DNA from: Escherichia coli
GTDB taxonomy: Bacteria; Pseudomonadota; Gammaproteobacteria; Enterobacterales; Enterobacteriaceae
DNA: 64,000 nucleotides
NCBI GenBank assembly: GCA_902500055.1
Contig: GCA_902500055.1_4131.1
Strand: one strand, 5' to 3'
Made by a program: the position numbers and the translations under genes
The notes under the pieces: generated by a model
What the model saw: only the letters and a program-made list of their open reading frames with translations
Databases searched by the model: none
Told to the model about the DNA's origin: nothing
Shown: one piece after another, positions 7,307 to 52,349 of the stretch
How the letters are laid out: each line of letters opens with the position of its first letter
Position numbering within the stretch: position 1 is the first letter of the stretch

Positions 7307-7891
7307 TTATCGTGTTACCTTACTTGCTGCCACATCACGCTTTTTATAGTACTGATTCCAGATATTGCAGGTTAAACCGTAATCAAGTACTTTAATAAGG
7401 CCATTACGATCCTGGCCGATATTCTGTTTTCTGATATCTCTTATCGTTAGTGTTGATAATGTATCATCGACGTGTTGTAGTGCATCAGCAAAGCGGTGCT
7501 GGCGTTCGATTGCATTACGTTTAATATTGTACTTTAATTCATTGCACGCGTTTACGTGCTTCACACTACCTTTGCTTGCAGTACTCAACCGATCCATAAC
7601 GATAAACATATTATCAGGATCGCATAAATGCATATGCACCTTTGCAAAGTACTGTTTCAACTGAGGGCGGTCATAGTCTAAAAAATTCCATACCTTACAT
7701 TCAGTTTCATTTTGTTCTACACCCGCATCACAATTCGCGACCTTAATCACTAACCGATCATTTAAAGCGAAAACTATACGGGAAGAACCAGCACCGATGA
7801 TCTCCAGGCCAGCTAACCGACAAGCTGAAAGGATCTCTTTGTTGGTTTCCATTTCTGACAGTGTACGGATGAATTTAGTATAATTACGCAT
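7307..7891 (-). CDS. eukaryotic-like Ser/Thr protein kinase
   Basis: Gly-rich loop IGAGSSRIVF, VIKV lysine, catalytic loop IRDIRKQNIG, DFG-like IKVLDYG; start trimmed to Met20 with AAGGAGAA RBS. Confidence 0.7.
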   Translation of the reverse strand: MRNYTKFIRTLSEMETNKEILSACRLAGLEIIGAGSSRIVFALNDRLVIKVANCDAGVEQNETECKVWNFLDYDRPQLKQYFAKVHMHLCDPDNMFIVMDRLSTASKGSVKHVNACNELKYNIKRNAIERQHRFADALQHVDDTLSTLTIRDIRKQNIGQDRNGLIKVLDYGLTCNIWNQYYKKRDVAASKVTR

Positions 7892-7922
7892 TGCATGTTC
7901 TCCTTGAGTTAATGAAACTATA

Positions 7923-8165
7923 TTACAGTACTTTACTATCAATGGCAACTACTTTTTTAACATTAACGGCGTGGATCACTTCCTTCGTGTTTTTAGTACT
8001 GAATACTTTCGCCGCTCCTTGTTCGACCGTGATACGATAGCGACCATTAACATCAACCATATTAATAAAGTCCGGCGTGCTGAATGGTGTTGTTTTACAT
8101 TTGAGTACTGTTAACAGTTCCACCAGCGATGTAGTTTCTTTGATACGTTTTTCTAAAGTAATCAT
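7923..8165 (-). CDS. hypothetical protein
   Basis: ORF track; start trimmed to Met20; upstream 57 nt is a repeated promoter (TTGACA-17-TACTAT). Confidence 0.5.
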   Translation of the reverse strand: MITLEKRIKETTSLVELLTVLKCKTTPFSTPDFINMVDVNGRYRITVEQGAAKVFSTKNTKEVIHAVNVKKVVAIDSKVL

Positions 8166-8222
8166 TTTGTTTCCCCCGTGTTGGTATGTACATATAGTAC
8201 TAAAACATTTGAGTACTGTCAA

Positions 8223-8441
8223 TTAGATAATATTATATTTCTTTAAAGATAATGCGTCTTGGGTTGGCTGATACTCGATACCGTTCCCATTATTGACTTC
8301 AACTAATAAACCTTTGTCAATTAGTTTTTTAATAGTACGATACCCCTGTTGAAAATTGGTAAAATGTGAATCATTACGAAAGGTATAACCGTGCTTAACT
8401 GCTTCATCAATAGTTTTCTTTTCGATTTTAGATAATTTCAT
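8223..8441 (-). CDS. hypothetical protein
   Basis: ORF track; start trimmed to Met20; same repeated upstream cassette as 7923-8165. Confidence 0.5.
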   Translation of the reverse strand: MKLSKIEKKTIDEAVKHGYTFRNDSHFTNFQQGYRTIKKLIDKGLLVEVNNGNGIEYQPTQDALSLKKYNII

Positions 8442-8494
8442 TTTGTTTCTCCCGTGTTGGTATGTGTACATAATACTAAAACAATTGAGTACTG

Positions 8495-8749
8495 TCAACG
8501 TGATATTAGTTTTATTTTCTTATTATATTGTTGGTGTTCATATAGGTTTATTTTTCCTGTGTTCTCTATTACTATTCTGTTGTTAGTGTCCACATCGATT
8601 ACACGCAGTTTCCCGTTGCTTAACTTCCTTGGTAATAGGTTACCATTAATAAACTCATTAGCAAGCTGTACGGCCTTTGTGATGATTCTCTTCGGTGCTT
8701 TATAGTGTACCCGTAAGATGTTATCTTTATATAGTTGAACCTTAATCAT
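8495..8749 (-). CDS. hypothetical protein
   Basis: ORF track 84 aa. Confidence 0.5.
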   Translation of the reverse strand: MIKVQLYKDNILRVHYKAPKRIITKAVQLANEFINGNLLPRKLSNGKLRVIDVDTNNRIVIENTGKINLYEHQQYNKKIKLISR

Positions 8750-8761
8750 TTTGTTTGTCCT

Positions 8762-8789
8762 ATAAAAAAGGCGGGATCAGTTCCCGCCG
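8762..8789 (-). terminator. intrinsic terminator
   Basis: Minus strand hairpin GGCGGGAACTGATCCCGCC followed by T-run. Confidence 0.55.
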
Positions 8790-8810
8790 TGTTGTTAGTA
8801 CTGCAAGTTA

Positions 8811-9206
8811 TTAGATAACCTGGCGGCGTTTACTGTATACTGTTACACGATTACCCTTACGATCATGTCGGATCTCTTTCTGGTTGCGAATCAGTTCACT
8901 TGGACGCTTAAGGTTTGCCAGGTGATCCGCGTGAGTCCATGCGGTGTGGTTTACCTGTACTTTGATATCAGAATCAGCGATAAACTCATCTTGTGCGTCA
9001 AGTATTGCCGCCAGCATATCCGCTCGTTTTAGTTCTGCTGCTGTTAGTACTGGCTCAGGTGAATTCACAATATCAGAGATTTCTTTGAACTGTACGGCCC
9101 AGCGTTGACCTTTCGGTGCTGTCGTTCCCATGTCTTTAAATGCTGCTCCTTCCTCGCGTGCAACAATACGGGCAGCTTCACGGGTAGCGTAGAATTTAGT
9201 AATCAT
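8811..9206 (-). CDS. hypothetical protein (paralog of 20866-21132)
   Basis: Shared motifs YFATRE.AR, FKDMG, RWAV, RKGNRVTVY. Confidence 0.6.
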   Translation of the reverse strand: MITKFYATREAARIVAREEGAAFKDMGTTAPKGQRWAVQFKEISDIVNSPEPVLTAAELKRADMLAAILDAQDEFIADSDIKVQVNHTAWTHADHLANLKRPSELIRNQKEIRHDRKGNRVTVYSKRRQVI

Positions 9207-9301
9207 GGTATACATCCTATTAGTTGAGTTAGTACTACAAGTTAGAGTCTATTATAAAGTACTATCTGGGCAATGTCAAATAGTACTTTAAATGGATTCT
9301 A

Positions 9302-9625
9302 TTACATGTCTTTCTTACGTTTTACATCGTAGTAGCGAACTGTTATTTCTTTGTTAATCTCTTTTTCGATGCGGTGAATAACTTTTTCTTTCGGGTTGAA
9401 ACCTATAACGGTTTCTTTAATGATCTCCAAACCAGTGTATTCGCCTTGCGTACCGTAACCGTATGTAAAGGTTTCGTGTCCCAGGTCTTCCCAGCGGTCG
9501 CCAATTAACGCAGACACGTAGCAAGAGTGGTAAGTATTGCCGTTCCGATCAGTCCAGCGATTAACTTTAATGTCAAAGGAGGTTACAATTTTCAATTCCA
9601 CTTTCTGGGTAAGGATCATAGCCAT
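9302..9625 (-). CDS. hypothetical protein (paralog of 15258-15602)
   Basis: ORF track 107 aa; shared YGYG core and C-terminal VKRKKD. Confidence 0.6.
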   Translation of the reverse strand: MAMILTQKVELKIVTSFDIKVNRWTDRNGNTYHSCYVSALIGDRWEDLGHETFTYGYGTQGEYTGLEIIKETVIGFNPKEKVIHRIEKEINKEITVRYYDVKRKKDM

Positions 9626-9712
9626 TTTTATTTCTCTCTCTTTGTTAGGAGGGGAACCATTTCCCCGCCTTGATGTAAACTATTATACAGTACTAAGATA
9701 CTTTGTCAATAC

Positions 9713-9988
9713 TTAAGTATTGTAAATGTCGTGAATAGTGATAAAGTTTTTACGCCCGTAAACCTGTAAATCGGTATTAATGTAATGCTTATCAAGTACA
9801 TCCTCGACGCTTAAAGCCGTGTCGTGAATATCTTCGTAGAATTGAGGATCTACAATCTTGCTTAAGTCATCCGGCGTTAACTTATCGTTAAGCCATTGAA
9901 CCGCCTGGATATCTGCATCACGTTTCCATTGTTCCAGGTTAGTAGTCAGTACTTGTTCGATTTCGTTAGCTGTCAGTAGAATCCGCAT
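9713..9988 (-). CDS. hypothetical protein
   Basis: ORF track 91 aa; preceded by long duplicated leader. Confidence 0.55.
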   Translation of the reverse strand: MRILLTANEIEQVLTTNLEQWKRDADIQAVQWLNDKLTPDDLSKIVDPQFYEDIHDTALSVEDVLDKHYINTDLQVYGRKNFITIHDIYNT

Positions 9989-10002
9989 TTTAATGTTTCC
10001 TT

Positions 10003-10190
10003 ATCAGTGGTTGATGTAAGTATTATACTCGTTTACTTTCTATTGTCAAACTATTTTATCAGGGGAGTTTTTCGTATGTCTTACTCCTGGACTACTTAAC
10101 GGGGTTACTTGTTTCGTTCCCCGTCCTGATGTAAAACATTATACTTGATTCTAAGTACAATGCAAGTACTTTTTAAAAATAGTTTTCAGT
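10003..10190 (-). repeat. duplicated leader cassette with tandem promoters (copy 1 of 2)
   Basis: Near-identical to 20138-20320; contains TTGACA-16-TATAAT plus PeSL-type promoter and two hairpins. Confidence 0.6.
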
Positions 10191-10312
10191 ACTTGATAGT
10201 ACTAGCCACCAGCAAACAATAGATACATTTATGCACCCGGTGGGCTAATTTGTTTCTATGCGTATATAATAGCAAAGGGACTGACCGGAGTCAATCCCTT
10301 TTTCAATTATTT

Positions 10313-10462
10313 TTAAACTTCTTTCGGGTTGCGATAGGTGATAGCGTTCGGGTACATTTGTTTAATGTTATTCCATGCCTGGTTAACATTATAACCACTT
10401 GAGCGAATCAGTTGGTTACTACCGACACCTTGAAACACTACTTCAAATAAGAATTCTTTCAT
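10313..10462 (-). CDS. hypothetical small protein (49 aa, below ORF-track cutoff)
   Basis: Manual translation MKEFLFEVVFQG...; ATGA overlap with upstream gene stop. Confidence 0.4.
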   Translation of the reverse strand: MKEFLFEVVFQGVGSNQLIRSSGYNVNQAWNNIKQMYPNAITYRNPKEV

Positions 10463-10632
10463 GCTTTCACCTCGCTATCTGCTTTGCCTTTACGCCAGGC
10501 CGTTGCTAATTGTTCGCGTTGCCATAAGTCGAGTGATACGTAAAGTTTTGCATTATCACCCTTCGGATATTCGCCAGTAGTACCAATCCGATAAAACAGA
10601 TCTTTCAGTACTGTTAATTCTACCTGGACCAT
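10459..10632 (-). CDS. hypothetical small protein
   Basis: ORF track; start trimmed to Met35 (MVQVELTV) with AGAGGA RBS. Confidence 0.5.
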   Translation of the reverse strand: MVQVELTVLKDLFYRIGTTGEYPKGDNAKLYVSLDLWQREQLATAWRKGKADSEVKA

Positions 10633-10718
10633 TATACTTTCCTCTTTGTTAGGAGGGGAACTATTCCCCTTCCGATATAAAACATTATACACTTTATTCA
10701 GTACAGTGCAAGTACTTT

Positions 10719-10931
10719 TTAATCTTTCAGCCAATGATCCTGAATGAATTTTTCACCGAAACCTTGCTGCATTGATTGTAACAGACGTTCGCGATGAGCG
10801 GCGGCGAATTGCTCAGTACTATGCGTTACACCTGGTTGATATCTGGATTCACCATTGGGGGCGATGTATTGTACATCCCACGGTTTTTCGTTAGTATCAG
10901 ACCATTTACGAACGATTAGTTGACCTTGCAT
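10719..10931 (-). CDS. hypothetical protein
   Basis: ORF track 70 aa. Confidence 0.5.
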   Translation of the reverse strand: MQGQLIVRKWSDTNEKPWDVQYIAPNGESRYQPGVTHSTEQFAAAHRERLLQSMQQGFGEKFIQDHWLKD

Positions 10932-11017
10932 TTTTCTTTCCTCTTAGTGGGGAGAATCATTTTCTCCCCTTCATGTAACTTATTATACAGTACTATAATC
11001 TATTGTCCAGTACTTTT

Positions 11018-11206
11018 TTACAGTTTATGAATTAATTCTTTATCTAAGCGATAGCGTACATTATTAATGGTAACAGCATTATTTTTAATGCTACGCTGTA
11101 CGGGTCCACCAGCAATAACAAACGTTGCTTTATTGCCCCGAACAATGATAGCACTTCCAGGATTACCGAAATCATCTTGTACTAAAATACTTGATAAGTT
11201 TTCCAT
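11018..11206 (-). CDS. hypothetical protein
   Basis: ORF track 62 aa. Confidence 0.5.
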   Translation of the reverse strand: MENLSSILVQDDFGNPGSAIIVRGNKATFVIAGGPVQRSIKNNAVTINNVRYRLDKELIHKL

Positions 11207-11284
11207 TTTTATTTCCTCTTAGTAGGGGAAGATGTTTCCCCTTGATGCAAGTACTATAACAGTACTGAAAACTAAATGCAAGTA

Positions 11285-11641
11285 CTATGATAAAATCATG
11301 ATAGGATATTCACTATCTATCAATACCTCGAATCCGAAACCTTCGTACCATTCTTTAAGATTAAAGGCGTTATCTTCTCCCGTATCGCATTCTAAGATGA
11401 TACAATCTGAATCATCGGCGGCATCGATAAAGGCATTCATTAATTCGTTACCTTCACCATTGCCCCGACTATCAGGATCAACATAAAGAGAATCAATAAA
11501 CGCTACACGGTCATAATCAAGATCCGGTGCAATGATTCCACGTTTAACAAACCAGTACTGCAATTGTGCTACTTTGCCCTGTACCTGATAACCAGTGATC
11601 TCTCCATTGTCAGTAGTACGCGTGATATGTTGTATTCCCAT
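11285..11641 (-). CDS. GNAT-like N-acetyltransferase (putative)
   Basis: Motif YVDPDSRGNGEGNELMNAF (R-G-x-G-x-G acetyl-CoA loop) and C-terminal WYEGFGFE. Confidence 0.45.
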   Translation of the reverse strand: MGIQHITRTTDNGEITGYQVQGKVAQLQYWFVKRGIIAPDLDYDRVAFIDSLYVDPDSRGNGEGNELMNAFIDAADDSDCIILECDTGEDNAFNLKEWYEGFGFEVLIDSEYPIMILS

Positions 11642-11705
11642 GATTACTATCCTCAGTTAAGATATAAAACATTATACACTATCTTTCAGTACTGTCAATT
11701 ACTTT

Positions 11706-11963
11706 TTATCTCATAGATCTATGCCAACAATTACGCGGTTGACGTTTAAAAATACTATCATGATCCTCCTGGCAAGTTATGCAGTACTTACACCCCTTAA
11801 CGACCTGGCGGCGATTCTCAGGGATTTTATCGCCGCAGTCGAGGCAATGTATCAGTGATTCTATTTGTGCGTTAATTTGCGTTCTAGCGTGGTTAACAGC
11901 AGCCTGAATCACTGCGTTAATCTCGTCTTGTTCGGCCCCATCTTTCGCGAATCCTACAGCCAT
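11706..11963 (-). CDS. TraR/DksA-family C4 zinc-finger protein (putative)
   Basis: CLDCGDKIPENRR...CKYCITC four-cysteine motif. Confidence 0.55.
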   Translation of the reverse strand: MAVGFAKDGAEQDEINAVIQAAVNHARTQINAQIESLIHCLDCGDKIPENRRQVVKGCKYCITCQEDHDSIFKRQPRNCWHRSMR

Positions 11964-12293
11964 TATTTTAACCTCATTATAAAAATACTATAGTACTGTA
12001 ATGCGACAATAATATTACTTGTTCTTACTTTTTCCAATCCACATGATACCACATATTCATTACCATATGTGCGGAACGATACACCATGAAAATTTTTATA
12101 CACTTGCACTACTAATCATAACCTTTCGTCTAACCAACTGCATAGAATTATACTACTTTACGCAAATTGATCAAGTATTGATCAGATCATTTTTGATCAA
12201 TATTATACAGTTACATTTGTGCACCCTATGGGTTAGTGACGTTCTCGTCTTGATGTAAGTATTATGCCAGTACTGGATGATATTGTCAATAGA

Positions 12294-12491
12294 TTATTTT
12301 AATTTTTTTCTGTCATTGATTAATGCTTTCAGTACTATACTAATGATTTGCAATGATTCATCAATGACTATAAAATTATTTTCTTTCATTAGATGATAGT
12401 TACCATTGATTGTATATTCTAAGGAGTACTGTTTACGTTTAATTTTTGATAATGTTTCTATTTGTTTTTGTACTGATTTCATGCTAATCAT
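12294..12491 (-). CDS. hypothetical protein
   Basis: ORF track 65 aa. Confidence 0.45.
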   Translation of the reverse strand: MISMKSVQKQIETLSKIKRKQYSLEYTINGNYHLMKENNFIVIDESLQIISIVLKALINDRKKLK

Positions 12492-12596
12492 TGGTAAACG
12501 TCCTGTAACGCATTCTAACGAGATAAACGGTTGAGTACTGGCATTGTATAGGGTAATGAATTAAAGCCCACCAGCGTTAACCAGTGGGCTATAATC

Positions 12597-12740
12597 TTAC
12601 ATCTTGCGGATAATCTTAACAGTATCTTTCACCGATTTACCGTTTTGCTGACATTGCTCGATCATCGCGTATTGTTCTGCGGTCAGATCCTCGCCAGTTT
12701 TTGCCAGTACTGCGTCGATGAATGAATCCAGTGCGATCAT
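12597..12740 (-). CDS. hypothetical small protein (47 aa)
   Basis: Manual translation MIALDSFIDAVLAK...; RBS-like AGAGAGAGAAACAAA upstream; hairpin downstream. Confidence 0.4.
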   Translation of the reverse strand: MIALDSFIDAVLAKTGEDLTAEQYAMIEQCQQNGKSVKDTVKIIRKM

Positions 12741-12832
12741 TTTGTTTCTCTCTCTTAGGTTAAGTTAACTACTGTTTATAAAACTTATTATACAGTACTA
12801 TCAAACGTTGTCAATAGTACTGGTAATATATT

Positions 12833-13045
12833 TTAATTGATGATGGTTAATGTAAAGTTATAATCCCCTGCCTGGTATAGTACTTTATCGCCGAACGTGC
12901 CGACACGTTTCATATTGCAATAGATACCCATAACACTTTTTACATCTTTGATATTCCGAACGCCCGTAATATCCTTGTTTAAATGATCGTGATCAGAAAA
13001 TAAAACTTGTTTTGCATTTTTCAGTACAGTGCAGATATTAGCCAT
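12833..13045 (-). CDS. hypothetical protein
   Basis: ORF track 70 aa. Confidence 0.5.
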   Translation of the reverse strand: MANICTVLKNAKQVLFSDHDHLNKDITGVRNIKDVKSVMGIYCNMKRVGTFGDKVLYQAGDYNFTLTIIN

Positions 13046-13141
13046 TTTGTTTTCTCTCTCTGTTAGTGGGGAGAAGTTTTTCTCCCCTTGATGTAAACTA
13101 TTATACAGTACTATAATCTATTGTCAAACTATTTTTTTATA

Positions 13142-13483
13142 TTATTCGAAATCTTCTGGACCGGACTGATAATCATCTTCACCGTATGCACTTTCTAACT
13201 TCTCGCCAGTGTGATCATCAGTTAGTGAATCATCCTCATAATTCACGTCTACGCCTACAATGTAAAACTGGCTATCGTCTGGATCATTGAAATTAATTTT
13301 CTGAATGTTTACAATAACTGTATTGATGCCCAGGACACAGCCATCAGCCGTTACAAAGTACTGATATTTTTCACAACCGCCTGAATTGAAACCGTAATTA
13401 ATTTCGGCCCGACCATCATTTAAACGCAGTGCCTGGGCGATGATTTCATTTTCAAAGTTAGATTGAGCAATTGAGATAGTCAT
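13142..13483 (-). CDS. hypothetical acidic protein
   Basis: ORF track 113 aa. Confidence 0.55.
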   Translation of the reverse strand: MTISIAQSNFENEIIAQALRLNDGRAEINYGFNSGGCEKYQYFVTADGCVLGINTVIVNIQKINFNDPDDSQFYIVGVDVNYEDDSLTDDHTGEKLESAYGEDDYQSGPEDFE

Positions 13484-13697
13484 GATTTGTTTCCTTATTA
13501 CCAGGGGAAACCGTTTCCCCTTTCGATGTAAAACATTATACGCTTATTGAGATAGTTTGCAAGTACTTTTTAAAAATAGTTTTCAGTACTCAATACTTAT
13601 ATAATAGATACACTTATGCACCCGGTGGGCTAGTGAGCTATCTCTCAATGAATATATAATAGCAAAATGGCTGACCGAAGTCAACCACTTTTTTCAT

Positions 13698-13832
13698 TTA
13701 TTTTTTAGCTTTCAGTACTGCCGCCTTTCGCGTCATGCCTTGCTTAATGTACTCCTTTACTTTCGCTTTACGTGCTTTCGCTTTATCTGCTTTCGTTTTA
13801 GGAGTACTGTAAATTAAACCGTTAGGATTCAT
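13698..13832 (-). CDS. hypothetical small basic protein (44 aa)
   Basis: Manual translation MNPNGLIYSTPKTKADKAKARKAK...; terminator hairpin downstream; weak RBS. Confidence 0.3.
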   Translation of the reverse strand: MNPNGLIYSTPKTKADKAKARKAKVKEYIKQGMTRKAAVLKAKK

Positions 13833-13918
13833 TTAAATCACCATAAAGAATAGATAGGTTACTAACAATGCCGCGATCAATGCACCGATCACCGCTGAAC
13901 TGTAATAAGCTAATGATT

Positions 13919-14071
13919 TCATTTTTTAGCCTGAAAATAATGTTTAATTTGAGCGGCGGTCAGTGCACAATTACGCAGGAAGTTTTCTGTATAACTTTTG
14001 CGAGTACTGAAAGAGAATTGACCTTTGCCGTTACCGATAGTAACATCAAACCGAGCGTTGTATTGTTTCAT
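13919..14071 (-). CDS. hypothetical small protein
   Basis: ORF track; start trimmed to Met11. Confidence 0.45.
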   Translation of the reverse strand: MKQYNARFDVTIGNGKGQFSFSTRKSYTENFLRNCALTAAQIKHYFQAKK

Positions 14072-14152
14072 TTTGTTTCTCCTGTTATTGGGGAGAATCA
14101 TTTCTCCCCTTCATGTAAACTATTATACAGTACTAAAAACTAATTGCAAGTA

Positions 14153-14299
14153 CTATTTTTTAGATTTACGCAAACTTTCTACCATCTCAGGAGTAAGGCC
14201 CGGCGGGTAGGAAACTACTTCATCAACGAAACGTAAAGGGAATACCCCAGCGAAAGGTGAACGTGCTTTCTTAGTATTACTCTTTTTTGATGCTTTCAT
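14153..14299 (-). CDS. hypothetical small basic protein (48 aa)
   Basis: Manual translation MKASKKSNTKKARSPF...; AAGGAA RBS; PeSL upstream. Confidence 0.4.
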   Translation of the reverse strand: MKASKKSNTKKARSPFAGVFPLRFVDEVVSYPPGLTPEMVESLRKSKK

Positions 14300-14368
14300 T
14301 TCATATTCCTTAATTAGTGGGGAGAATCATTTCTCCCCTTCATGTAAAACATTATACGCGTTTAAAAA

Positions 14369-14578
14369 CTAATTGCAAGTACTATTTGAAAGTAAATGCT
14401 CATACGCTGCATTAACTACGTTTTCAATAACCGACTGTACAGAAAGATCCCCCACGTCCTGGCTATAGTAGAAATCGCTTACAGTGGTGTCATCGTATGC
14501 AAATACTTTACCAGGTACGGCATCAATCACATACATATTAACCTTTAAGATGTCGATCTTATCCTGTACAGTAAGCAT
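14369..14578 (-). CDS. hypothetical protein
   Basis: ORF track 69 aa. Confidence 0.5.
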   Translation of the reverse strand: MLTVQDKIDILKVNMYVIDAVPGKVFAYDDTTVSDFYYSQDVGDLSVQSVIENVVNAAYEHLLSNSTCN

Positions 14579-14583
14579 ATTAA

Positions 14584-14856
14584 TTAACCTTTTAAGTACT
14601 GGCTTAAGTAGTCTTGTTGATCTTCGGTGATTGCAGCCATCTTCCCTAGTACTGGATTGATGATATAATCCCCTGTAACGTCCTGTAACGCATTCTCAGG
14701 CGGTTTAACGGCTGGGGTAGCCATAGCCATTGCCTGGACTTGTTCGACGCTGTAACGCTCATATAGGCGGCATTCTTCCGGTGTTAACATAGCATCAGTA
14801 CGCTTCATCGGTTTAATGATGCTTTCGATCTCATTCAGTACTTGATTAACGTTCAT
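14584..14856 (-). CDS. hypothetical protein
   Basis: ORF track 90 aa. Confidence 0.55.
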   Translation of the reverse strand: MNVNQVLNEIESIIKPMKRTDAMLTPEECRLYERYSVEQVQAMAMATPAVKPPENALQDVTGDYIINPVLGKMAAITEDQQDYLSQYLKG

Positions 14857-14907
14857 GGTATAATCCCCAATATAAGCGGCCTGAATCGACCGCTAACGAT
14901 GTTTTGA

Positions 14908-15177
14908 TTAATAGGTGTATGGTTGACGCTCAAACAATGATTGCACGTTGTACGCCCCGCTTATGGGCTTCGCTGGTAAATCAATTTTATATTGTTCACG
15001 CTTAAAGATAATAAAACGGCAATTGTTTTTAACATCAAAATTGATTGAACGTTCCAGGAGTTTACCATCGTGCACAAATACAAGATAACCGCTTGGTACT
15101 TGTTTTGTAGTACTGGTTGCAACCATAGACCGCCGAACATGTGTACCTGCATCGATTAAAGTACTGATATTTTTCAT
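14908..15177 (-). CDS. hypothetical protein
   Basis: ORF track 89 aa. Confidence 0.5.
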   Translation of the reverse strand: MKNISTLIDAGTHVRRSMVATSTTKQVPSGYLVFVHDGKLLERSINFDVKNNCRFIIFKREQYKIDLPAKPISGAYNVQSLFERQPYTY

Positions 15178-15257
15178 TATACGATCCTCTTAAGTTAATT
15201 TAATTTCTTTCCCCTATGCAGACACTATATCAAAGTATCTGCATAAAGTAAAGCTAA

Positions 15258-15602
15258 TTAAAGATCTTTTTTGCGTTTAACATCAGTTACCGAACTGTAA
15301 ACAGTGATATTATTGTCACGGCAAAAACGGGAAAGATAAGAACCGCGTAAAAACTCTTTATCTTCCATATTAATAACCTTGCTAAATTCTTCCATTGCTA
15401 CAGTGTCAAAGTGATCCCCGTATCCATATTGGAACGGCACGTTTACTACTTCAATAAAATTACCATCAATTTCTACGTCTACACTTAAAGAGAAATAAGT
15501 GTTACCATATGAAGCCTGGAACCAACGCCGAGCGGCAATATGTACAACTTCAACAGAAGACAGGTTGATATTTTGTTTTGCGATAGTGTTGATATTAGCC
15601 AT
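15258..15602 (-). CDS. hypothetical protein (paralog of 9302-9625)
   Basis: ORF track 114 aa; shared C-terminal VKRKKD and YGYG core. Confidence 0.6.
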   Translation of the reverse strand: MANINTIAKQNINLSSVEVVHIAARRWFQASYGNTYFSLSVDVEIDGNFIEVVNVPFQYGYGDHFDTVAMEEFSKVINMEDKEFLRGSYLSRFCRDNNITVYSSVTDVKRKKDL

Positions 15603-15690
15603 TTTAATTTCCTCTTAGTTGTCTTGATAAAATCTATTATGCCAGTACTATCAAACTATGTCAATAGTACTGTGATAATATTTTTACTTA
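15603..15690 (-). repeat. about 90 bp promoter-region direct repeat (second copy 15897-15990)
   Basis: TTGTTTCCTCTTAGTTGTCTTGATAAAATCTATTATGCCAGTACTATCAAACTATGTCAATAGTACTGTGATAATATTTTTACTTAC occurs twice. Confidence 0.7.
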
Positions 15691-15896
15691 CTTTCTTTCG
15701 CTGCTTTGTGCGTTGCCACTGCCATAACCACATCAGCACGAACAAAGTTTTTTACCGTGTCAGTGTAGTAATTGATTGCATCGTCAACATCTGTAAAAAT
15801 CCGATACATGCCGCACCACGATACTTTATAACCTTCTTTCACTTCTTCCAGCTTAACCAGTGATTTGTTTACTTTGATTTTTGTGATGATAGCCAT
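15684..15896 (-). CDS. hypothetical protein
   Basis: ORF track 70 aa. Confidence 0.55.
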   Translation of the reverse strand: MAIITKIKVNKSLVKLEEVKEGYKVSWCGMYRIFTDVDDAINYYTDTVKNFVRADVVMAVATHKAAKESK

Positions 15897-15977
15897 TATT
15901 GTTTCCTCTTAGTTGTCTTGATAAAATCTATTATGCCAGTACTATCAAACTATGTCAATAGTACTGTGATAATATTT

Positions 15978-16121
15978 TTACTTACTTTTTGCTTTCTTTG
16001 CTGCTTCCACCTGGTCGGCCCACTCTTTACCCCATACCTGAGCGTTATAGTGATACTGACAAAGAGCAACGCCCCGCTTTAAACCAGTAATAGATTTCTG
16101 ACCACATTGACAAGTTTTCAT
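15978..16121 (-). CDS. hypothetical small Cys-containing protein (47 aa)
   Basis: Manual translation MKTCQCGQKSITGLKRGVALCQYHY...; AAGGAAA RBS. Confidence 0.4.
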   Translation of the reverse strand: MKTCQCGQKSITGLKRGVALCQYHYNAQVWGKEWADQVEAAKKAKSK

Positions 16122-16207
16122 TTTAGTTTCCTTGTAGTGGGGAGAACCATTTTCTCCCCTTGATGTAATGTATTATACTTTATTCGATTTACTTTGCAAG
16201 TACTTTT

Positions 16208-16435
16208 TTAATTTAATTCATCAAGGCAAAGGATACGCTCAACGCCCAAATCAGTTAAACTAATCGACGGCACTTGATAGGTTTCAATGTATGCTACACT
16301 TGCCCACTGACCGAACTCATTAACGGCCCAGGTATTCATTGCATTTTGCAATTCCGCACCTTCCTTGTTGGTAATGACTGCAACTACTTGTTCGTTGCCA
16401 GTAGTACCAGATACGCGAGTAATGATAATAGCCAT
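16208..16435 (-). CDS. hypothetical protein
   Basis: ORF track; start trimmed to Met20. Confidence 0.5.
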   Translation of the reverse strand: MAIIITRVSGTTGNEQVVAVITNKEGAELQNAMNTWAVNEFGQWASVAYIETYQVPSISLTDLGVERILCLDELN

Positions 16436-16669
16436 TGTTTTGATTCCTTTGATTTGGAAGGAGAACCGTTTCCCCCTCTCGATGTAAAACATTATACGCT
16501 AATCTCTTAATCGTGCAAGTACTTTTTATTACTTTTTGCAAAATACTTTAAACGCACTCAATCGCATTCTAACGACTTTAACGCCACCAGCTAGGGCAAT
16601 GCATCAGATAAACAGTTTAATACGTTAGAATCGTTTCTAGGCGGTGCTGGTGGCCTGGTAAACGATAAA

Positions 16670-16700
16670 CACAAAAAAGCCCACTGTATAAGTGGGCTAA
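16670..16700 (-). terminator. intrinsic terminator
   Basis: Minus strand hairpin AGCCCACTTATACAGTGGGCT followed by TTTTTTGTG. Confidence 0.55.
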
Positions 16701-16719
16701 TGATTCAGTACTTTAATTG

Positions 16720-17202
16720 TTATGCTTCAACTTTGCGATGAGCTTCGATCCATTCCTCGCGAGTCATACCACTGGAGTTAATCGCATCCAGTACTACCGC
16801 AATGCAGTTACCACGCACCGGAATCAGATATTCTTCCCCGTTATCAAGTACTACCGCTACACGTTCTTGAATCCATTTTTTAGCTTTTACTTCTGGCTTA
16901 TCTTCACCGTACTTTTTCGCCAGGGCTTTTTGTGCCATCTCTGTAACTACTTCCAGATCCAATCCAACTACTGCCGCCTGAATACTTTCAATTGTTGCTT
17001 GTAGTTCTGCTTCACGGGCCGCCTTTGCCGCTTCAATTTCTGCCGCTTTATTTGCTTGTAGTTCTTTCGCAGTACTGTAAGCGATGTTAAAATTATTGCG
17101 TACCGCTTTCATGGTATCGTTATCCAGTTCAGCCAGGATCTCAGCCGCGACGTTAGTTTCATTTGCTACCAGTGCTTTGATGAATGATTTTACATTAGCC
17201 AT
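16720..17202 (-). CDS. hypothetical Ala-rich coiled-coil protein
   Basis: ORF track; start trimmed to Met6 with GAGGA RBS. Confidence 0.6.
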   Translation of the reverse strand: MANVKSFIKALVANETNVAAEILAELDNDTMKAVRNNFNIAYSTAKELQANKAAEIEAAKAAREAELQATIESIQAAVVGLDLEVVTEMAQKALAKKYGEDKPEVKAKKWIQERVAVVLDNGEEYLIPVRGNCIAVVLDAINSSGMTREEWIEAHRKVEA

Positions 17203-17401
17203 TTTATAAATCCTCAATTAAAGTTTAGTTTACGTTTATTAGTGTATCAAAGTTTTCTCGACGTGTCCAGTTTTTCGTTCGACTTACTGGCGGTCTACTT
17301 AGTGCTCCCCGTCTTGATGTAATACATTCTACGCTTTTCTGCGGTAATGTCAACTACTTTCTTAAAACTATTTTCAAAGTATCTCAGTACTACGATACTA
17401 C

Positions 17402-17431
17402 AAAAACAAAAAAAGCCCACCAGGTGGGCTA
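17402..17431 (-). terminator. intrinsic terminator
   Basis: Minus strand hairpin AGCCCACCTGGTGGGCT followed by TTTTTTTGTTTTTG. Confidence 0.6.
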
Positions 17432-17436
17432 TGTAC

Positions 17437-17667
17437 TTAATCAGTGAGTAAAATATTAAACACTTTACCATTTAACGTTATTGGTGCACTGCTACCAGGC
17501 TCAAGATCCGTTAATATACCTGCAATCGCTTTATCATTGGCGACCTTTCCAGTGTCCAACAGTACTACAGTACTGATAAGATTAACGCTCGTTTCAATAT
17601 CATAATGCACGGCGTTAAGTAGTTGTGTAGTACTGCTTTCGTTAAGTAAAACAATTCGCTTAGTCAT
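17437..17667 (-). CDS. hypothetical protein
   Basis: ORF track 76 aa. Confidence 0.5.
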   Translation of the reverse strand: MTKRIVLLNESSTTQLLNAVHYDIETSVNLISTVVLLDTGKVANDKAIAGILTDLEPGSSAPITLNGKVFNILLTD

Positions 17668-17688
17668 GATGTTACCCCGTAGTATCTA

Positions 17689-17988
17689 TCAACGGCAATT
17701 AATAACGCCGGTATGCGTTACTTTCTCAGTATCCATTACAGTGACCGAACCGCGTTTAGTACTGGCATCATAATAAATTGTCGTGCTACCGTTTTCGTCT
17801 TCTTCATGGAACGGGCCGTTTTTAAATGCTTCCGGCTGAATCTCCAGATCCTTTAATACAATCTCGCCAGTACTTTCATCGGTCATTGCAACAGTGCACT
17901 GAATGAATTTTTCACTACTTACATCTAATGACGCATTAACAGCGAAAGAGGAAACAGATAAAGCCAGGGCGATGATTGTAATTTTCAT
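17689..17988 (-). CDS. secreted protein (signal peptide)
   Basis: N-terminus MKITIIALALSVSSFAVNAS. Confidence 0.55.
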   Translation of the reverse strand: MKITIIALALSVSSFAVNASLDVSSEKFIQCTVAMTDESTGEIVLKDLEIQPEAFKNGPFHEEDENGSTTIYYDASTKRGSVTVMDTEKVTHTGVINCR

Positions 17989-18072
17989 TTGATTATCCTT
18001 AGTTACCAGGGGGAACCGCTCCCCCTTGCGATGTAAAATATTATACAGTACTAAAAACTATTATCAAGTACT

Positions 18073-18309
18073 TTATGATTTTTTATAAAACATTTCAGCA
18101 GTGATATTTTTACCCGTTGGCTGTACTTTATCCAGAATTTTTTGATGCCCTGGTCGTCCAAAGGAATATGATCCGTAAACAGTAAACCAGTAGTTGCCAT
18201 CAGTGTTTACATGTACAGCACAATAGGGTACGCCCCGCGATTCATCACTAGTAAAGTGTGCTACCGTTCCCGTTACATTCGAAGTCGTTGATTTGATTTG
18301 TTCAAGCAT
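18073..18309 (-). CDS. hypothetical protein
   Basis: ORF track 78 aa. Confidence 0.5.
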   Translation of the reverse strand: MLEQIKSTTSNVTGTVAHFTSDESRGVPYCAVHVNTDGNYWFTVYGSYSFGRPGHQKILDKVQPTGKNITAEMFYKKS

Positions 18310-18553
18310 TTTATTATTCCTTAGTTACCAGGGGGAACCGCTCCCCCTATGCAAAACATTATACGCGTTTAAAAACTAATTGCAAGTATTTTAATAAAAA
18401 GTATTTGAAAAATAGTTGTTGACAAGTGCATCCAGTACTGGCATAATTACTACATCAAGACGAAACAGTCACTAACCCACCGGGTGCCGAGATCCGTCTA
18501 TTAAATGATTCAGTACTGAAAAAGTAACGGGGAGTTATTATCTCCCCGCGTTG

Positions 18554-18775
18554 TTATTTTGTAAGGTATAAACAGAAGTCGCCTTTATTTGCTACGCCGC
18601 CAGTGTAACGCGATGAATAGTTAGAAACGTCCTGGACTTCTGCTATTACCAGGGTATCATCATTCAATTCGTCGCAGAAGCAAACGGCTGGATCTTGTAC
18701 GCCGATTTTGTCGGCATGTTCCCGCATAGATTTCACCAGTGCTTCCAGTTGGGAAAGAGTAGTGATATTAGCCAT
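18554..18775 (-). CDS. hypothetical protein
   Basis: ORF track; start trimmed to Met11. Confidence 0.5.
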   Translation of the reverse strand: MANITTLSQLEALVKSMREHADKIGVQDPAVCFCDELNDDTLVIAEVQDVSNYSSRYTGGVANKGDFCLYLTK

Positions 18776-18863
18776 TTTATTTTCCTCATTACCAGGGAGA
18801 ACCATTTCTCCCTTTGATGTAAACCATTATACAGTACTGAAAACTAATTGCAAGTACTTTTTT

Positions 18864-19124
18864 TCAGTATTGTTTATCGTCGTCTTCCTCGATGAATTGA
18901 CCGACGAAATGATCTACTTTCGCTTTGAGGCTTTTATAATCTTCTTCTACTTCCGTTAAACGTTCCTGGTAGTATTCCAGTGCCTCAAGATACGCCGCCT
19001 CAGCAGTTTTTGCACGCATAGCTAAATTCATTCCACGCGTTTCATCATAAAGCCAATAACCATCGGTGCACTGGCTAATAGATAATGACTTGCTTAGTGC
19101 TGTATAGCTAATTACTTTACTCAT
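18864..19124 (-). CDS. hypothetical protein
   Basis: ORF track 86 aa. Confidence 0.5.
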   Translation of the reverse strand: MSKVISYTALSKSLSISQCTDGYWLYDETRGMNLAMRAKTAEAAYLEALEYYQERLTEVEEDYKSLKAKVDHFVGQFIEEDDDKQY

Positions 19125-19181
19125 TAGATAACCCTCAGTAAAGGCGGGAACTATTACCCGCCATTATCTCAGTACTGAATA

Positions 19182-19421
19182 TTACATTCCAACCATTGCA
19201 GCACGGATCGCCGTAGTGCTATACTTGAATCCGTCCGGCGTTGTAGTAGTACCGTTGGCTTTTAATCTGCGGTACATACATTCCGCAGCAATATCTTTCG
19301 TTTTACTTTGTGCGATGCAATTTTGAGCAATCCGGTATAATGATTCATCGTTATTGATCCAAAGGCTTACATTCCAATGAGTTTTGTTTTTGTGCCCGTT
19401 GTAAGTTTTAGTACTAGCCAT
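19182..19421 (-). CDS. hypothetical protein (paralog of 21221-21460)
   Basis: Shared HKNKTHWNVSLWINNDE and TPDGFKYSTTAIRAAMVGM. Confidence 0.6.
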   Translation of the reverse strand: MASTKTYNGHKNKTHWNVSLWINNDESLYRIAQNCIAQSKTKDIAAECMYRRLKANGTTTTPDGFKYSTTAIRAAMVGM

Positions 19422-19511
19422 TTTTAAATCCTCGTTTGAGCGGGGAACCACTCCCCGCCTTGATGTAAAGTATTATACGCTTTTAAACTTAGTTTACAAG
19501 TACTTTTTAAA

Positions 19512-20120
19512 TTAATATTCGATTGATTCCACTACGCCATCAATAACATTGAATTGATATTCGTTACCCTCAATCAGTGCAGTAATGTTTTCAGTAGTGA
19601 ATTGATCCTCATATGCATTCTCTAAATCACGGTACAACTTACGAGATAATTCACGGATCGCATCAGTCAGTAAGTTTTCCAGATCCTCAGCCAATGCCGC
19701 CTGTTTTACAGTTAAATCAGTGTAGCGAGTATCAACGCAACCGCCTACCGTGTTTTCGTGTGCGTAGCGTGATTGGAAACGTTCTACACTCATTTCTAAA
19801 TCATCCTCGTTCAACAGGTGACGGATTGAACGATATTTCGTTAACGCCTTAACCTTGCGTAAAAACTTCTCAGCGTCAACGTGGTTAGTACTGATTGATG
19901 CACCGTCACCTTGCGACCAAAAACCACTGTATTGCAATTCAGCTTCATCTATGCCGTATTCTGGTAGTACTGTTTCTTTATAGTACTCGATAACGCCCTC
20001 AGCAAAGAAATTATCCTCACATGAACGCTCACGATCCCGAACCAGTTCAATAGCCGCCGTTTTTTGTTCTGCGTTCAGTTCAGAAAAAGCCATAACAAAA
20101 GTAGTAGTGATAGTTTTCAT
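19512..20120 (-). CDS. hypothetical acidic protein
   Basis: ORF track 202 aa; GAGGG RBS; preceded by duplicated leader. Confidence 0.6.
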   Translation of the reverse strand: MKTITTTFVMAFSELNAEQKTAAIELVRDRERSCEDNFFAEGVIEYYKETVLPEYGIDEAELQYSGFWSQGDGASISTNHVDAEKFLRKVKALTKYRSIRHLLNEDDLEMSVERFQSRYAHENTVGGCVDTRYTDLTVKQAALAEDLENLLTDAIRELSRKLYRDLENAYEDQFTTENITALIEGNEYQFNVIDGVVESIEY

Positions 20121-20137
20121 TTTGTAACCCTCATTCA

Positions 20138-20320
20138 GTAGTTGATGTAAGTATTATACGCTTTTACTTTCTATTGTCAAACTATTTTATCAGGGGAGTT
20201 TTTCGTGTGCCTTACTCCTGGGCTACTTAACGGGAAGTTACTTATTTCGTTCCCCGTCCTGATGTAAAACATTATACGCCTTTAAACATAGTTTACAAGT
20301 ACTTTTTAAAAATAGTTTTC
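20138..20320 (-). repeat. duplicated leader cassette with tandem promoters (copy 2 of 2)
   Basis: Near-identical to 10003-10190. Confidence 0.6.
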
Positions 20321-20784: not shown

Positions 20785-20865
20785 TACTCCAGGTTATAGG
20801 CGGGAAGAGTTCCCGCTCTCGATGTAAAACATTATACGCTTTTATCAGTACGGTGCAAGTACTTT

Positions 20866-50078: not shown

Positions 50079-50317
50079 AGTTGTAGAATTTCATAAGAGC
50101 CTGGTGGTGCTGGATTGATAATCTCAGGGTATTCAGTACTGTTAGGATTACCACCAGCATTGAACTCAGCAAGTAATAATTCGAGTTCATTCCTATCATG
50201 AACAACAAACACGCAATATCCAGTTCCTTCTTCAAGAACTGTAGTTGATCCCGCACAATCCCATACGGTATCAATACATAATAATTCTTTAGTGTTTTTA
50301 TTACGCAACGCAAACAT
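50063..50317 (-). CDS. hypothetical protein
   Basis: ORF track 84 aa; AGGAGA RBS; preferred over overlapping 50068-50481 frame. Confidence 0.55.
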   Translation of the reverse strand: MFALRNKNTKELLCIDTVWDCAGSTTVLEEGTGYCVFVVHDRNELELLLAEFNAGGNPNSTEYPEIINPAPPGSYEILQLWELK

Positions 50318-50326
50318 ATATGTCTC

Positions 50327-50695
50327 CTATCGATTCGGCATATTCTTTCGTAGTCGCAAGAGAAATTCAACCACTGACCATGTTGTAATGAAGGCAATAT
50401 AAGTTGCAAGGAATCCAGTAAGAATAAATGCAACCAGCGTACTACCATTTGGGGAATCAGTTTTAATGCCGATGACACCATCGGCTACAGTGAAACATGT
50501 AGCCATTAATGTGTAACCTACGTACAACACAAAGAAAAACTCATTCTCCATTGAAGGATAGAAACGGTTAAACACTTTATAAAATTTAAAGTACAGTAGG
50601 ATTATACCAACAAAGGCATAGAATGTAAACAGTGTTGTTATAATATATGAGATTAGGTTCAAATTATACATATCAACGCTCCGGTAGATTATCAC
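50327..50695 (-). CDS. family D small polytopic membrane protein
   Basis: ORF track 122 aa; C-terminal RLRKNMPNR. Confidence 0.6.
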   Translation of the reverse strand: MIIYRSVDMYNLNLISYIITTLFTFYAFVGIILLYFKFYKVFNRFYPSMENEFFFVLYVGYTLMATCFTVADGVIGIKTDSPNGSTLVAFILTGFLATYIAFITTWSVVEFLLRLRKNMPNR

Positions 50696-51020
50696 GTAAT
50701 GTTTTAATTCGATGATACATTTTCATACCAATATTACCAAAGATACCATATCCAAGTACTAAAATGTATGCAATAAGCATAGTAATAATTACTATAGTGC
50801 CAAAACTATAATGTACACTACTGATACCCATTGTAGTTTCAACGATTATTTGAGAAACTGAAAGAATCAAAAGTACAACTACAATTGGATGATTTGGGTA
50901 CATTCGGTTGAACAACGTTTTGTACTTAAAGAAGCACAGTACTCCACCGAATAAGAAGTAAACAATGTAAATGCAAGCAACAGCATAGGCAAACATGTTA
51001 GTGTAATAAATCATTTCCAA
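50673..51020 (-). CDS. family D small polytopic membrane protein
   Basis: ORF track 115 aa; C-terminal LRDNLPER. Confidence 0.6.
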   Translation of the reverse strand: MEMIYYTNMFAYAVACIYIVYFLFGGVLCFFKYKTLFNRMYPNHPIVVVLLILSVSQIIVETTMGISSVHYSFGTIVIITMLIAYILVLGYGIFGNIGMKMYHRIKTLRDNLPER

Positions 51021-51023
51021 TCC

Positions 51024-51362
51024 TTACTTTTCAGGGATATTAGAACGCCATATATCAATGCGATGAACTAGTCCAAAGAACAACCATACTGGAACGGCAG
51101 CTATCATAACAACAAATGAAAACCCAGTCAACACCGATACCAGATTTAATTCATCAGTACTATACCCACATATCAGTACTTCTAATATTCCCCACGTACA
51201 TGCACAAAACATCAAGAATGAAATTGGGGCATCATAGTAGATACGTTCATATAAAGTAGTATATCGGAAGAATGCAATAATATAGCAAAACATATAATAC
51301 ACCCAAACCAAAGATACTACATAAAATGATACTTTGTTTATTAATTCAAAATATTGTTCCAT
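51024..51362 (-). CDS. family D small polytopic membrane protein
   Basis: ORF track 112 aa; C-terminal WRSNIPEK. Confidence 0.6.
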   Translation of the reverse strand: MEQYFELINKVSFYVVSLVWVYYMFCYIIAFFRYTTLYERIYYDAPISFLMFCACTWGILEVLICGYSTDELNLVSVLTGFSFVVMIAAVPVWLFFGLVHRIDIWRSNIPEK

Positions 51363-51364
51363 TT

Positions 51365-51646
51365 TTACCCCAATATATATTCAGAGAGTAATGTATTAGC
51401 TTCATCTTTGTTCTTAAGGTAATACATGTAATATAGATTCGGTTCACCATCTTTAGAACTCAAATCGAAGTACTTTAAACTATGTACTTTCATAGTAAAA
51501 ACAAATAATGACTTAAAACCAATCTCACCGTACTTAATAAACAGTTCATCCAAATGAATGTAACTTTTTGATTTGGATAATTCTTTAACGTCTGCATCAA
51601 TTTCAGATAAAAGATGCTTACCTATTAAGTTTTCAAATGAACGCAT
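51365..51646 (-). CDS. hypothetical protein
   Basis: ORF track 93 aa. Confidence 0.5.
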   Translation of the reverse strand: MRSFENLIGKHLLSEIDADVKELSKSKSYIHLDELFIKYGEIGFKSLFVFTMKVHSLKYFDLSSKDGEPNLYYMYYLKNKDEANTLLSEYILG

Positions 51647-51707
51647 GATTTTATCCTTTACCGCAATTTTTATGGTTTATTAAGAATACACCAGAACATC
51701 AGTTCTG

Positions 51708-52349
51708 TCAATAAAAAACTGGATCTTCTTCAGTAACTGGTATTTCTCTACGTACATCACACGAAAGAGGATCAGTAATGAATACATTGCCATCTTTATC
51801 CATCATCACATTACTTGAATGAATGTCTGGTACAAAACGCCCGTGAAACTCTTTCATGATGTTAGCAGCGACCGTTGCAATAGCAATCTCTTCAGAATTT
51901 CCACGCATATCATTCACTGAAGTAGCGTACTGACCAGCATGTGCATAAGAATATAAATCTCCAATTTTAGTACTAACAAAGTCATCATAATTATTTTTTT
52001 GTTTAATTATAGGATAGTACTTGTCCATCTCATACCATCCAAAGTTTCCTTGTTCGTTGGCACTGTAGATCACTGGAAGAAACTTGGTTCCTGCGTTTTC
52101 AATGCAGTACTTTGCATAAGCACGAAAACCATCCCAGCGTGAAGTGGTTACTTTAAATGCACGTCCAGGATAGTTTTTATGTTCAACTACTACAGAGTAC
52201 ATCCCCATTCCAAGCAAAGTAAGTCCAGCAGCTTTAACTTGTGGAAAGATTACGCGTTCAGCATAAGGAATATCAAACTCCATCGCACAACGAGTTTTTG
52301 ATGGACGCAAAATGTCAATTAAAGTTTTGAATATGTCTTGCTTAGTCAT
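51708..52349 (-). CDS. protein-kinase-like phosphotransferase (putative)
   Basis: Gly-rich LGMGMYSVVV, AFKV lysine, catalytic DIHSSNVMMD, FITDP; start trimmed to Met12 with AGAGGA RBS. Confidence 0.5.
   Translation of the reverse strand: MTKQDIFKTLIDILRPSKTRCAMEFDIPYAERVIFPQVKAAGLTLLGMGMYSVVVEHKNYPGRAFKVTTSRWDGFRAYAKYCIENAGTKFLPVIYSANEQGNFGWYEMDKYYPIIKQKNNYDDFVSTKIGDLYSYAHAGQYATSVNDMRGNSEEIAIATVAANIMKEFHGRFVPDIHSSNVMMDKDGNVFITDPLSCDVRREIPVTEEDPVFY

Follow-up and report, generated by a model that had tools for sequence, protein, structure and literature searches.

Does one segment of phage DNA encode two protein kinases and, if so, what might such a pair do in the infected cell? The question arises from a 64,000-nucleotide stretch of an Escherichia coli assembly (GCA_902500055.1, contig GCA_902500055.1_4131.1; hereafter the window), in which two genes, A (7307-7891) and B (51708-52349), both on the minus strand, encode protein-kinase-like proteins. 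A preliminary description of this DNA had placed two such genes in a phage segment, and that much holds: both open reading frames (ORFs) are present, their starts match the coding sequences (CDSs) of relatives, and the DNA is 95-99% identical to jumbo coliphages of the Asteriusvirus type (PBECO4, 121Q, G17 and vB_Ec-M-J). No third kinase-like ORF was found in the window when hidden Markov models of the A and B families were run against all 257 of its ORFs with 50 aa or more. The best overall explanation, to which we assign a probability of roughly 0.65, is that A and B are early mini-kinases that phosphorylate host proteins in the service of takeover or anti-defence.

Two truncated kinase-like proteins

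The two genes and their catalytic codons are as follows.

7307..7891, minus strand: kinase A, a minimal enzyme of the protein-kinase-like type, 194 aa long and in family phrog_4301, recognized by profile matches and conserved catalytic residues
7742-7744 (K50), 7700-7702 (E64), 7436-7438 (D152), 7421-7423 (N157), 7382-7384 (D170), minus strand: catalytic codons of kinase A
51708..52349, minus strand: kinase B, a 213-aa kinase domain of the T7 gp0.7 type (T7K) without the shutoff (SO) domain, recognized by profiles, BLASTP and model
52152-52154 (K66), 51825-51827 (D175), 51810-51812 (N180), 51771-51773 (D193), minus strand: catalytic codons of kinase B

Kinase B carries the motifs G47-M-G49-M-Y, F-K66-V, D175-I-H-S-S-N180 and I-T-D193-P. 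It matches phrog_15752, which bears a T7 gene 0.7 description (E = 4.4e-91), and phrog_2828, a 'serine-threonine kinase' (E = 7.8e-17). BLASTP aligns it with T7 gp0.7 itself (26% identity, 178 aa, E = 5e-9), pairing GMGMYS with GNGHFS, FKV with IKV, and DIHSSNVM...FITDPLS with DMHSGNIM...YITDPVS. Among 23 homologues, down to 38% identity, G47, G49, K66, D175, H177, N180 and D193-P194 are invariant; the equivalent of DFG is DPL, with L195 kept in at least 90% of the clade. The AlphaFold model is confident (predicted local distance difference test, pLDDT, 92.7; predicted template-modelling score, pTM, 0.88). Its best 50 Foldseek matches in the PDB are protein kinases plus one APH(3'), at E ~1e-5, and in BFVD it matches Autographiviridae 'protein kinase' models with E values of 1e-15 to 1e-13 and template-modelling scores of 0.69-0.75. 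Kinase B is matched by 775 phage records, mostly of T7-like phages, and its family has a precomputed Pfam accession, PF27024.1. A protein of Salmonella phage SD-6_S16 is 100% identical to kinase B.

Kinase B stops 20 residues past D193 (clade members are 211-237 aa long), and the shutoff/DNA-binding domain of T7K is therefore missing. Taken together, sequence and model identify kinase B as homologous to the kinase domain of T7 gp0.7, with loss of the C-terminal shutoff/DNA-binding domain. The preliminary description had mentioned T7 gp0.7 as an example of a phage kinase; for B this comparison turns out to be literally right, given the match to the T7-kinase PHROG, the BLASTP alignment and the fold.

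For kinase A, the corresponding motifs are I-G33-A-G35-S-S-R38, V-I-K50-V, E64, D152-I-R-K-Q-N157 and L-D170-Y-G172. The glycine loop, the lysine of VIKV and the DYG that had been described can thus be read in the sequence, but the D-x-K-x-x-N catalytic loop cannot: the loop is D-x-R-K-x-N, with Arg154 at +2 and Lys155 at +3. The phrog_4301 profile, which carries no assigned function, matches residues 3-188 (E = 4.3e-41). When a profile built from 13 sequences of the family was compared with solved structures, MKK4 (1.5e-4) and MKK7 (~5e-4) were retrieved, and the 60 matches listed were all protein kinases save two haemoglobin chains without a significant stretch. With 53 sequences, the E value for MKK4 fell to 3.5e-5, 113 sequences scored at E ≤ 0.01, and all 60 of the matches listed were kinases. 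The Gly-loop, catalytic loop and D-Y-G of A align in register with the HRDIKPSN...DFG of solved kinases.

Conservation in the A family was counted over 56 near-full-length members, the 53-56 homologues used diverging to ~22% identity. K50, E64, D170, G172, R38 and Q60 are invariant (56/56), D152 is kept in 55/56, and G33 and G35 in 47-49. Because K50, E64, D170 and G172 are invariant, D152 is nearly so, and the B residues do not vary in 23 homologues, the motifs are not chance matches. Neither a non-kinase fold nor a loss of catalytic residues, the two outcomes that would have spoken against kinases, was seen for A or B. Kinase A ends 24 residues past D170, and across the family this tail ranges from 12 to 66 residues; with so short a tail past the DFG Asp, the family has no activation segment, APE or helices F to I. 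An exhaustive profile search returned 2071 representatives at E ≤ 1e-3 and 245 at E ≤ 1e-10, mostly of 165-260 aa.

Phage vB_Ec-M-J encodes a protein, EcMJ_042, that has the same sequence as kinase A (100% identity). A 194-aa protein of RaK2, probably an A orthologue, is among the matches of the kinase B model (E = 4e-5), and the order of secondary-structure elements in the usable N-terminal third of the A model mirrors that of kinase B. PADLOC gave at most marginal matches of kinase A to PD-T4-6 models, and NCBIfam gave no meaningful match for either kinase.

In some metagenomic proteins (450-970 aa), two to four A-type mini-kinase domains follow one another in tandem within one polypeptide. 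Distant members of the A family are also found on metagenome contigs of 287 kb and 306 kb, amid genes for RNA repair and nucleotide metabolism: their neighbours include a T4 Rnl1-type RNA ligase, a Pnkp-like AAA_33 protein, a PolyA_pol-family nucleotidyltransferase (CCA-adding type), NUDIX and HD domains and a DNA ligase. This suggests that, in other huge phages, distant A members sit in a counter-defence neighbourhood.

How are the two kinases related? Their motifs occur in the same order, and they share a common build, in which a helical extension at the N terminus precedes a kinase N-lobe and a short C-lobe, the latter ending 20-24 residues past the metal-binding Asp. It follows from the short C-lobe that neither has an activation loop or a substrate-docking lobe. 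Direct comparison is only marginal (BLASTP, E = 0.027; hhalign, E = 0.0098 and 0.0052, probability 4-7%), which points to a common superfamily and architecture for A and B and not to a recent common origin; recent paralogy was rejected on these scores. Judged by its profile matches, the phage family of A (phrog_4301) is distinct from that of B and larger, and A is nearer in sequence to eukaryotic-type kinases.

Terminal repeat and early-type promoters

The segments around A and B match ~45 phage records at 90-99% DNA identity (blast against phage records). All are Escherichia or Salmonella jumbo phages of ~350-385 kb in the genus Asteriusvirus, among them PBECO4, 121Q, G17, phAPEC6, Sharanji, fEgEco12 and vB_Ec-M-J, and these matches place the window in the genome of an Asteriusvirus-type E. 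coli jumbo phage of ~350 kb. Orthologues of A and B have also been deposited as 'hypothetical protein' of Escherichia coli or Salmonella enterica on contigs of ~347-351 kb, which are complete jumbo-phage genomes within bacterial assemblies; the same remark is made in the T7K paper (Nature 2026, PMC13645617).

The features that bear on the expression and placement of the two genes are listed here.

3057..23652, no strand: stretch equivalent to the ~21-kb direct terminal repeat (blastn against the vB_Ec-M-J record, 1-33583, in which the repeat is annotated at 1-21525)
7920..7948, minus strand: promoter-like site upstream of kinase A (TTGCCA, 17 nt, TAATAT; 9/12 consensus match), followed by the ribosome-binding site (RBS) AAGGAG
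7268..7295, minus strand: 12-bp hairpin, 12 nt past the kinase A stop, its stem holding a TTGACT -35 box, followed by TG-n-TATTAT
52378..52413, minus strand: hairpin AAAAGGTTGACTTCGGTCAGCCTTTT upstream of kinase B with an embedded -35 box TTGACT, followed by an extended -10 element TG-n-TATGAT (10/12)
51692..51707, minus strand: short terminator-like hairpin directly past the kinase B stop, overlapping a promoter-like site (51711-51683, consensus match) of the next gene
52420-53679: 'virion structural protein' gene (phrog_20398) upstream of kinase B

Kinase A lies among ~47 small minus-strand ORFs in the repeat-equivalent stretch, which also holds 21 near-consensus sigma-70 promoters on the coding strand. 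The stretch boundaries were projected from vB_Ec-M-J, whose annotated direct terminal repeat is 21,525 bp. The projected physical genome end, 23652, coincides with a flip in both GC skew and coding strand (~24 kb). Since the window holds a single copy of the ~20.6-kb stretch with both flanks (~3057 and ~23652), the repeat has probably been collapsed in the source assembly, or else the genome is circularly permuted. In vB_Ec-M-J the A orthologue (16690-17274) is within the terminal repeat, as it is in Klebsiella phage Muenster (17325-17909, repeat of 20,030 bp); the position in fEgEco12 (16161-16745) is consistent with its 20,993-bp repeat, which was verified experimentally by restriction digests. 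Records that include both repeat copies show the kinase A gene twice. Kinase B is in unique DNA, ~28 kb beyond the repeat.

Matches to the sigma-70 consensus at 11 or more of 12 positions number 37 in the window, compared to 4.05 (maximum 7) in shuffled sequence. On the minus (coding) strand there are 31 of them, and 21 fall in 4.3-23.3 kb and 10 in 47.9-64 kb; the plus-strand gene block (28.3-43.5 kb) holds none of the 37. Because both kinase genes sit among dense near-consensus sigma-70 promoters, they appear to be transcribed early by the host RNA polymerase. For CBB, a phage of the same group, RpoD-promoter-rich regions and the terminal repeat have likewise been proposed to hold early, host-takeover genes (CBB paper). 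The window also contains 16 perfect TTGACA-N16/17-TATAAT sites, and its dense promoter zones extend over 4391-23287 and 47923-63991 on the minus strand. Many of the 'TTG start codons' in the ORF list (e.g. 8222, 8498 and 7948) are actually -35 boxes of promoter-like sites.

Upstream of each kinase gene is a promoter-like site of its own, and a hairpin follows immediately after the gene. The hairpin past kinase A (7268..7295) looks like a joint terminator and promoter for the next gene. A recurring hairpin, GG(G)(A)TTGACTNNGGTCAG(T)CC, is found on the minus strand at 4537, 7292, 10298, 13686, 52409, 54255, 55016 and 58257, one copy being just upstream of kinase B and another just downstream of kinase A. 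It has a -35 box in its stem, followed by a T-rich tract and a -10-like box (TATTAT, TATGAT or TATAAT), and the set has the look of combined terminators and promoters between early genes.

These elements bear on the choice of start codons. The longest ORF of kinase A (7307-7948) begins at a TTG that would give a 213-aa form; this start was rejected, the TTG being the -35 box of the promoter-like site, and the ATG at 7891, with AAGGAG in front, gives 194 aa. The longest ORF of kinase B (51708-52382, 224 aa) begins at an ATG at 52382, a start likewise rejected, as it falls within the promoter element. Since the upstream ATGs of the 224-aa ORF are overlapped by the -10 box, the ATG at 52349 (213 aa, with the RBS AGAGGA in front) is the more likely start. 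The chosen starts agree with CDSs of relatives, that of A being 585 nt and that of B 642 nt in phAPEC6.

Between the two promoter zones is the sole large plus-strand block of the window, a head-to-tail array of 14 paralogous ORFs of ~240-415 aa (28309-43468). At E < 1e-5 there are 53 matching pairs, with 64.5% identity in one of them. RCC1-repeat (beta-propeller) domains were recognized in the two ORFs that were scanned (30499-31644 and 35278-36465), with matches to phrog_4219 ('regulator of chromosome condensation') and to Pfam RCC1_2 and WD40_RLD; the block is rich in Ser, Thr and Tyr (26%). On the far side of kinase B, the 'virion structural protein' gene adjoins an HNH/NUMOD4 homing-endonuclease gene (53684-54226, minus strand), near which relatives show indels; the match to several records is broken into pieces there.

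Proposed function and its alternatives

If A and B are early mini-kinases, the host RNA polymerase would transcribe both genes early in infection, and the products, having no activation loop to gate them, would be constitutively active. They would phosphorylate host (and phage) proteins on Ser or Thr, and possibly Tyr, and by analogy with T7K and its homologue JSS1_004 this could bring about takeover of the cell and disarm its defence systems. Those two enzymes are promiscuous anti-defence kinases that modify thousands of sites and inactivate Retron-Eco9, DarTG1, DndFGH and other systems (for T7K, PMC13645617). All T7K homologues tested were hyperpromiscuous, and the C-terminal domain of T7K steers the kinase to nucleic-acid-binding proteins (PMC13645617). 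Because kinase B has no DNA-binding domain, it should lack this bias. The location of A in the repeat would provide two copies of it per packaged genome, one of them near whichever end enters first. A repeat placement of this kind would be a T5-like pre-early arrangement.

Several observations weigh against this proposal. Pfam Pkinase (PF00069) scores only 17.2 bits against kinase A (E = 0.0035), below the gathering threshold of 31.7 bits, and a match at E ≤ 0.01 is seen in 5/53 family members. With this score, the displaced lysine and nothing past the DFG motif, A is kinase-like, as had been proposed, but 'classical eukaryotic-like' overstates the case. Asn157 of the catalytic loop is kept in just 30/56 members, and the loop's lysine or other basic residues vary across the family, the +2 position included. 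The structural model of A, made from a 13-sequence alignment, is poor (pLDDT 50.1; usable for the N-lobe, residues 1-66, where it is ~66-86). Its fold assignment therefore rests on profile matches with modest E values and on a third-party annotation of the Muenster orthologue, which reports an HHpred probability of 99.9% to chain 6J5T_M. For B, the family profile retrieved no solved kinase significantly by sequence alone (best kinase, E = 0.35). This fits its earlier portrayal as a more distant pattern, whose DIHSSN and FITDP motifs are indeed present, and it means that the assignment of B rests on T7K homology and fold.

Early expression and repeat location also call for caution. The promoter calls are matches to the sigma-70 consensus, and the terminal-repeat position of kinase A is a projection from relatives. 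Nor is the depletion of Ser, Thr and Tyr seen in early proteins of T7-like phages evident here: these residues make up 17.1% of the two early-like blocks versus 26.4% of the RCC1-repeat block, a comparison confounded by protein type. A value of 17% is not below the E. coli average.

Could kinase A instead act on a small molecule, as an aminoglycoside-, lipid-, sugar- or nucleotide-type kinase with a metabolite, signalling nucleotide or cell-envelope component as its early target? The lack of an activation segment, P+1 loop and helices F to I, which bind protein substrates, would fit such an enzyme, as would the lack of conservation of the Ser/Thr-kinase catalytic-loop Lys and the proximity of distant A members to NUDIX, Pnkp-like, Rnl1 and CCA-adding enzyme genes. 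Foldseek returned weak N-lobe matches for the A model, mainly to APH(2'') and also to kinases; however, with a pLDDT of 50, that model lends the APH(2'') matches little weight. All 60 of the profile matches listed are protein kinases, not APH or choline kinases, and T7K, with the same truncated architecture, is a proven protein kinase. We therefore regard a small-molecule kinase as unlikely. Still more improbable, in our estimation, is that either protein, or each of them, is a pseudokinase or a scaffold, able to bind ATP or a host protein but not to transfer phosphate. Both are highly divergent and truncated, the Gly-loop of A is atypical (GxGSSR), its Asn157 is variable, and DPL takes the place of DFG in B. 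Yet the residues that pseudokinases typically lose, namely the beta-3 Lys, the catalytic Asp and the metal-binding Asp, are invariant or nearly so in both families, as is the helix-C Glu in A, and T7K, which shares the DP motif, is hyperactive (PMC13645617).

A different possibility concerns the range of targets. Classical work on gp0.7, and the PHROG description, give specific targets, and A and B might accordingly be substrate-specific regulators of RNA polymerase, RNase E/III or the translation apparatus, not promiscuous anti-defence enzymes. The target range of B may differ from that of T7K, whose preference is driven by the DNA-binding domain absent here, and the lack of Ser/Thr/Tyr depletion in early proteins is also in keeping with narrow specificity. 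The behaviour of the T7K homologues tested, every one of them hyperpromiscuous (PMC13645617), points the other way, and missing activation loops and docking elements speak against tight specificity; we consider such regulators rather unlikely.

Returning to promiscuous early mini-kinases, a more speculative extension can be envisaged, which we put forward tentatively. Kinase A might represent a second, independently evolved lineage of hyperpromiscuous, constitutively active kinases without an activation loop, disarming the host from the pre-early repeat, with B as a second wave in a two-kinase anti-defence programme. Huge phages commonly carry members of the A family, which counts 2071 representatives at 50% identity, many on contigs of 100-300 kb. 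If the extension is correct, a copy of A within ~17 kb of whichever end enters first would be a T5-like 'first-step' enzyme.

Promiscuous phosphorylation by T7-type kinases has lately been shown to disarm many bacterial defence systems, and jumbo coliphages of this group, which carry an SO-less T7K homologue and a second mini-kinase family in the terminal repeat, are under development for therapy. Should both proteins be active, they would serve as test cases for how much of T7K behaviour stems from the truncated kinase core alone, and for broad phosphorylation as a general takeover strategy of large phages.

Earlier annotation and known systems

Both kinases have already been annotated and discussed for near-identical phages; the finding is correct and already known, since GenBank records, the Sharanji paper (both proteins) and the T7K paper (B, via G17) name them. 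In GenBank, B is named 'protein kinase' in many records, and A appears as 'serine/threonine-protein kinase PRP4' (fEgEco12), 'protein kinase domain-containing protein' (ph0011) and 'putative protein kinase' (Munch, SE_PL, Muenster and K64-1). In the Sharanji paper, the B orthologue, WNN14432.1, is described as homologous to the T7 kinase and credited with a possible role in anti-defence, and the A orthologue, WNN14351.1, as 'another protein kinase'. As an observation on sequence, then, the pair adds nothing beyond existing annotation and publication. Two kinase-like genes in 64 kb had been thought notable; the count stands, but the novelty does not, the pair being conserved in Rak2-like jumbo phages, annotated and published.

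Compared to the kinases of PF00069 (MKK4, MKK7 and DYRK1A), kinase A has Hanks subdomains I to VII, comprising the Gly-loop, beta-3 Lys, helix-C Glu, catalytic Asp, Asn and D-[YF]-G, and these align in register with MKK4 and MKK7. In contrast, A has an invariant Arg in place of the third glycine of the loop, its catalytic loop has Arg at +2 and Lys at +3, and subdomains VIII to XI (activation segment/APE, helix F Asp and helices G to I) are wholly absent. Among phage proteins, Sharanji WNN14351.1 is 99% identical to A, and the 'putative protein kinases' of Muenster, Munch and K64-1 (phrog_4301) are 36-40% identical, with the same length and motifs. As projected for A, the orthologues in these four phages lie inside the terminal repeat, ~16-18 kb from the genome end, and show no substantive difference from it.

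Kinase B shares with T7K, whose family corresponds to PHROG 2828/15752, the D-x-H-x-x-N loop and the I-T-D-P metal motif over 178 aa. It ends ~20 residues past the DP motif, where the kinase domain of T7K also ends, and it has a putative promoter for the host RNA polymerase, as expected of an early gene. The two differ in length (213 versus 359 aa), B having no C-terminal SO/DNA-binding domain; in the metal motif, which is DPL in B and DPV in T7K; and in setting, B being in a ~350-kb myovirus ~28 kb off the terminal repeat, whereas T7K is at the leading end of a 40-kb podovirus. The T7K homologues of jumbophages, exemplified by Escherichia phage G17 and Salmonella phage Munch, have been described as diverged, with loss of the SO domain and of the Val of DPV (PMC13645617). 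The G17 protein is 98.6% identical to kinase B, without substantive difference, and is in effect the same protein.

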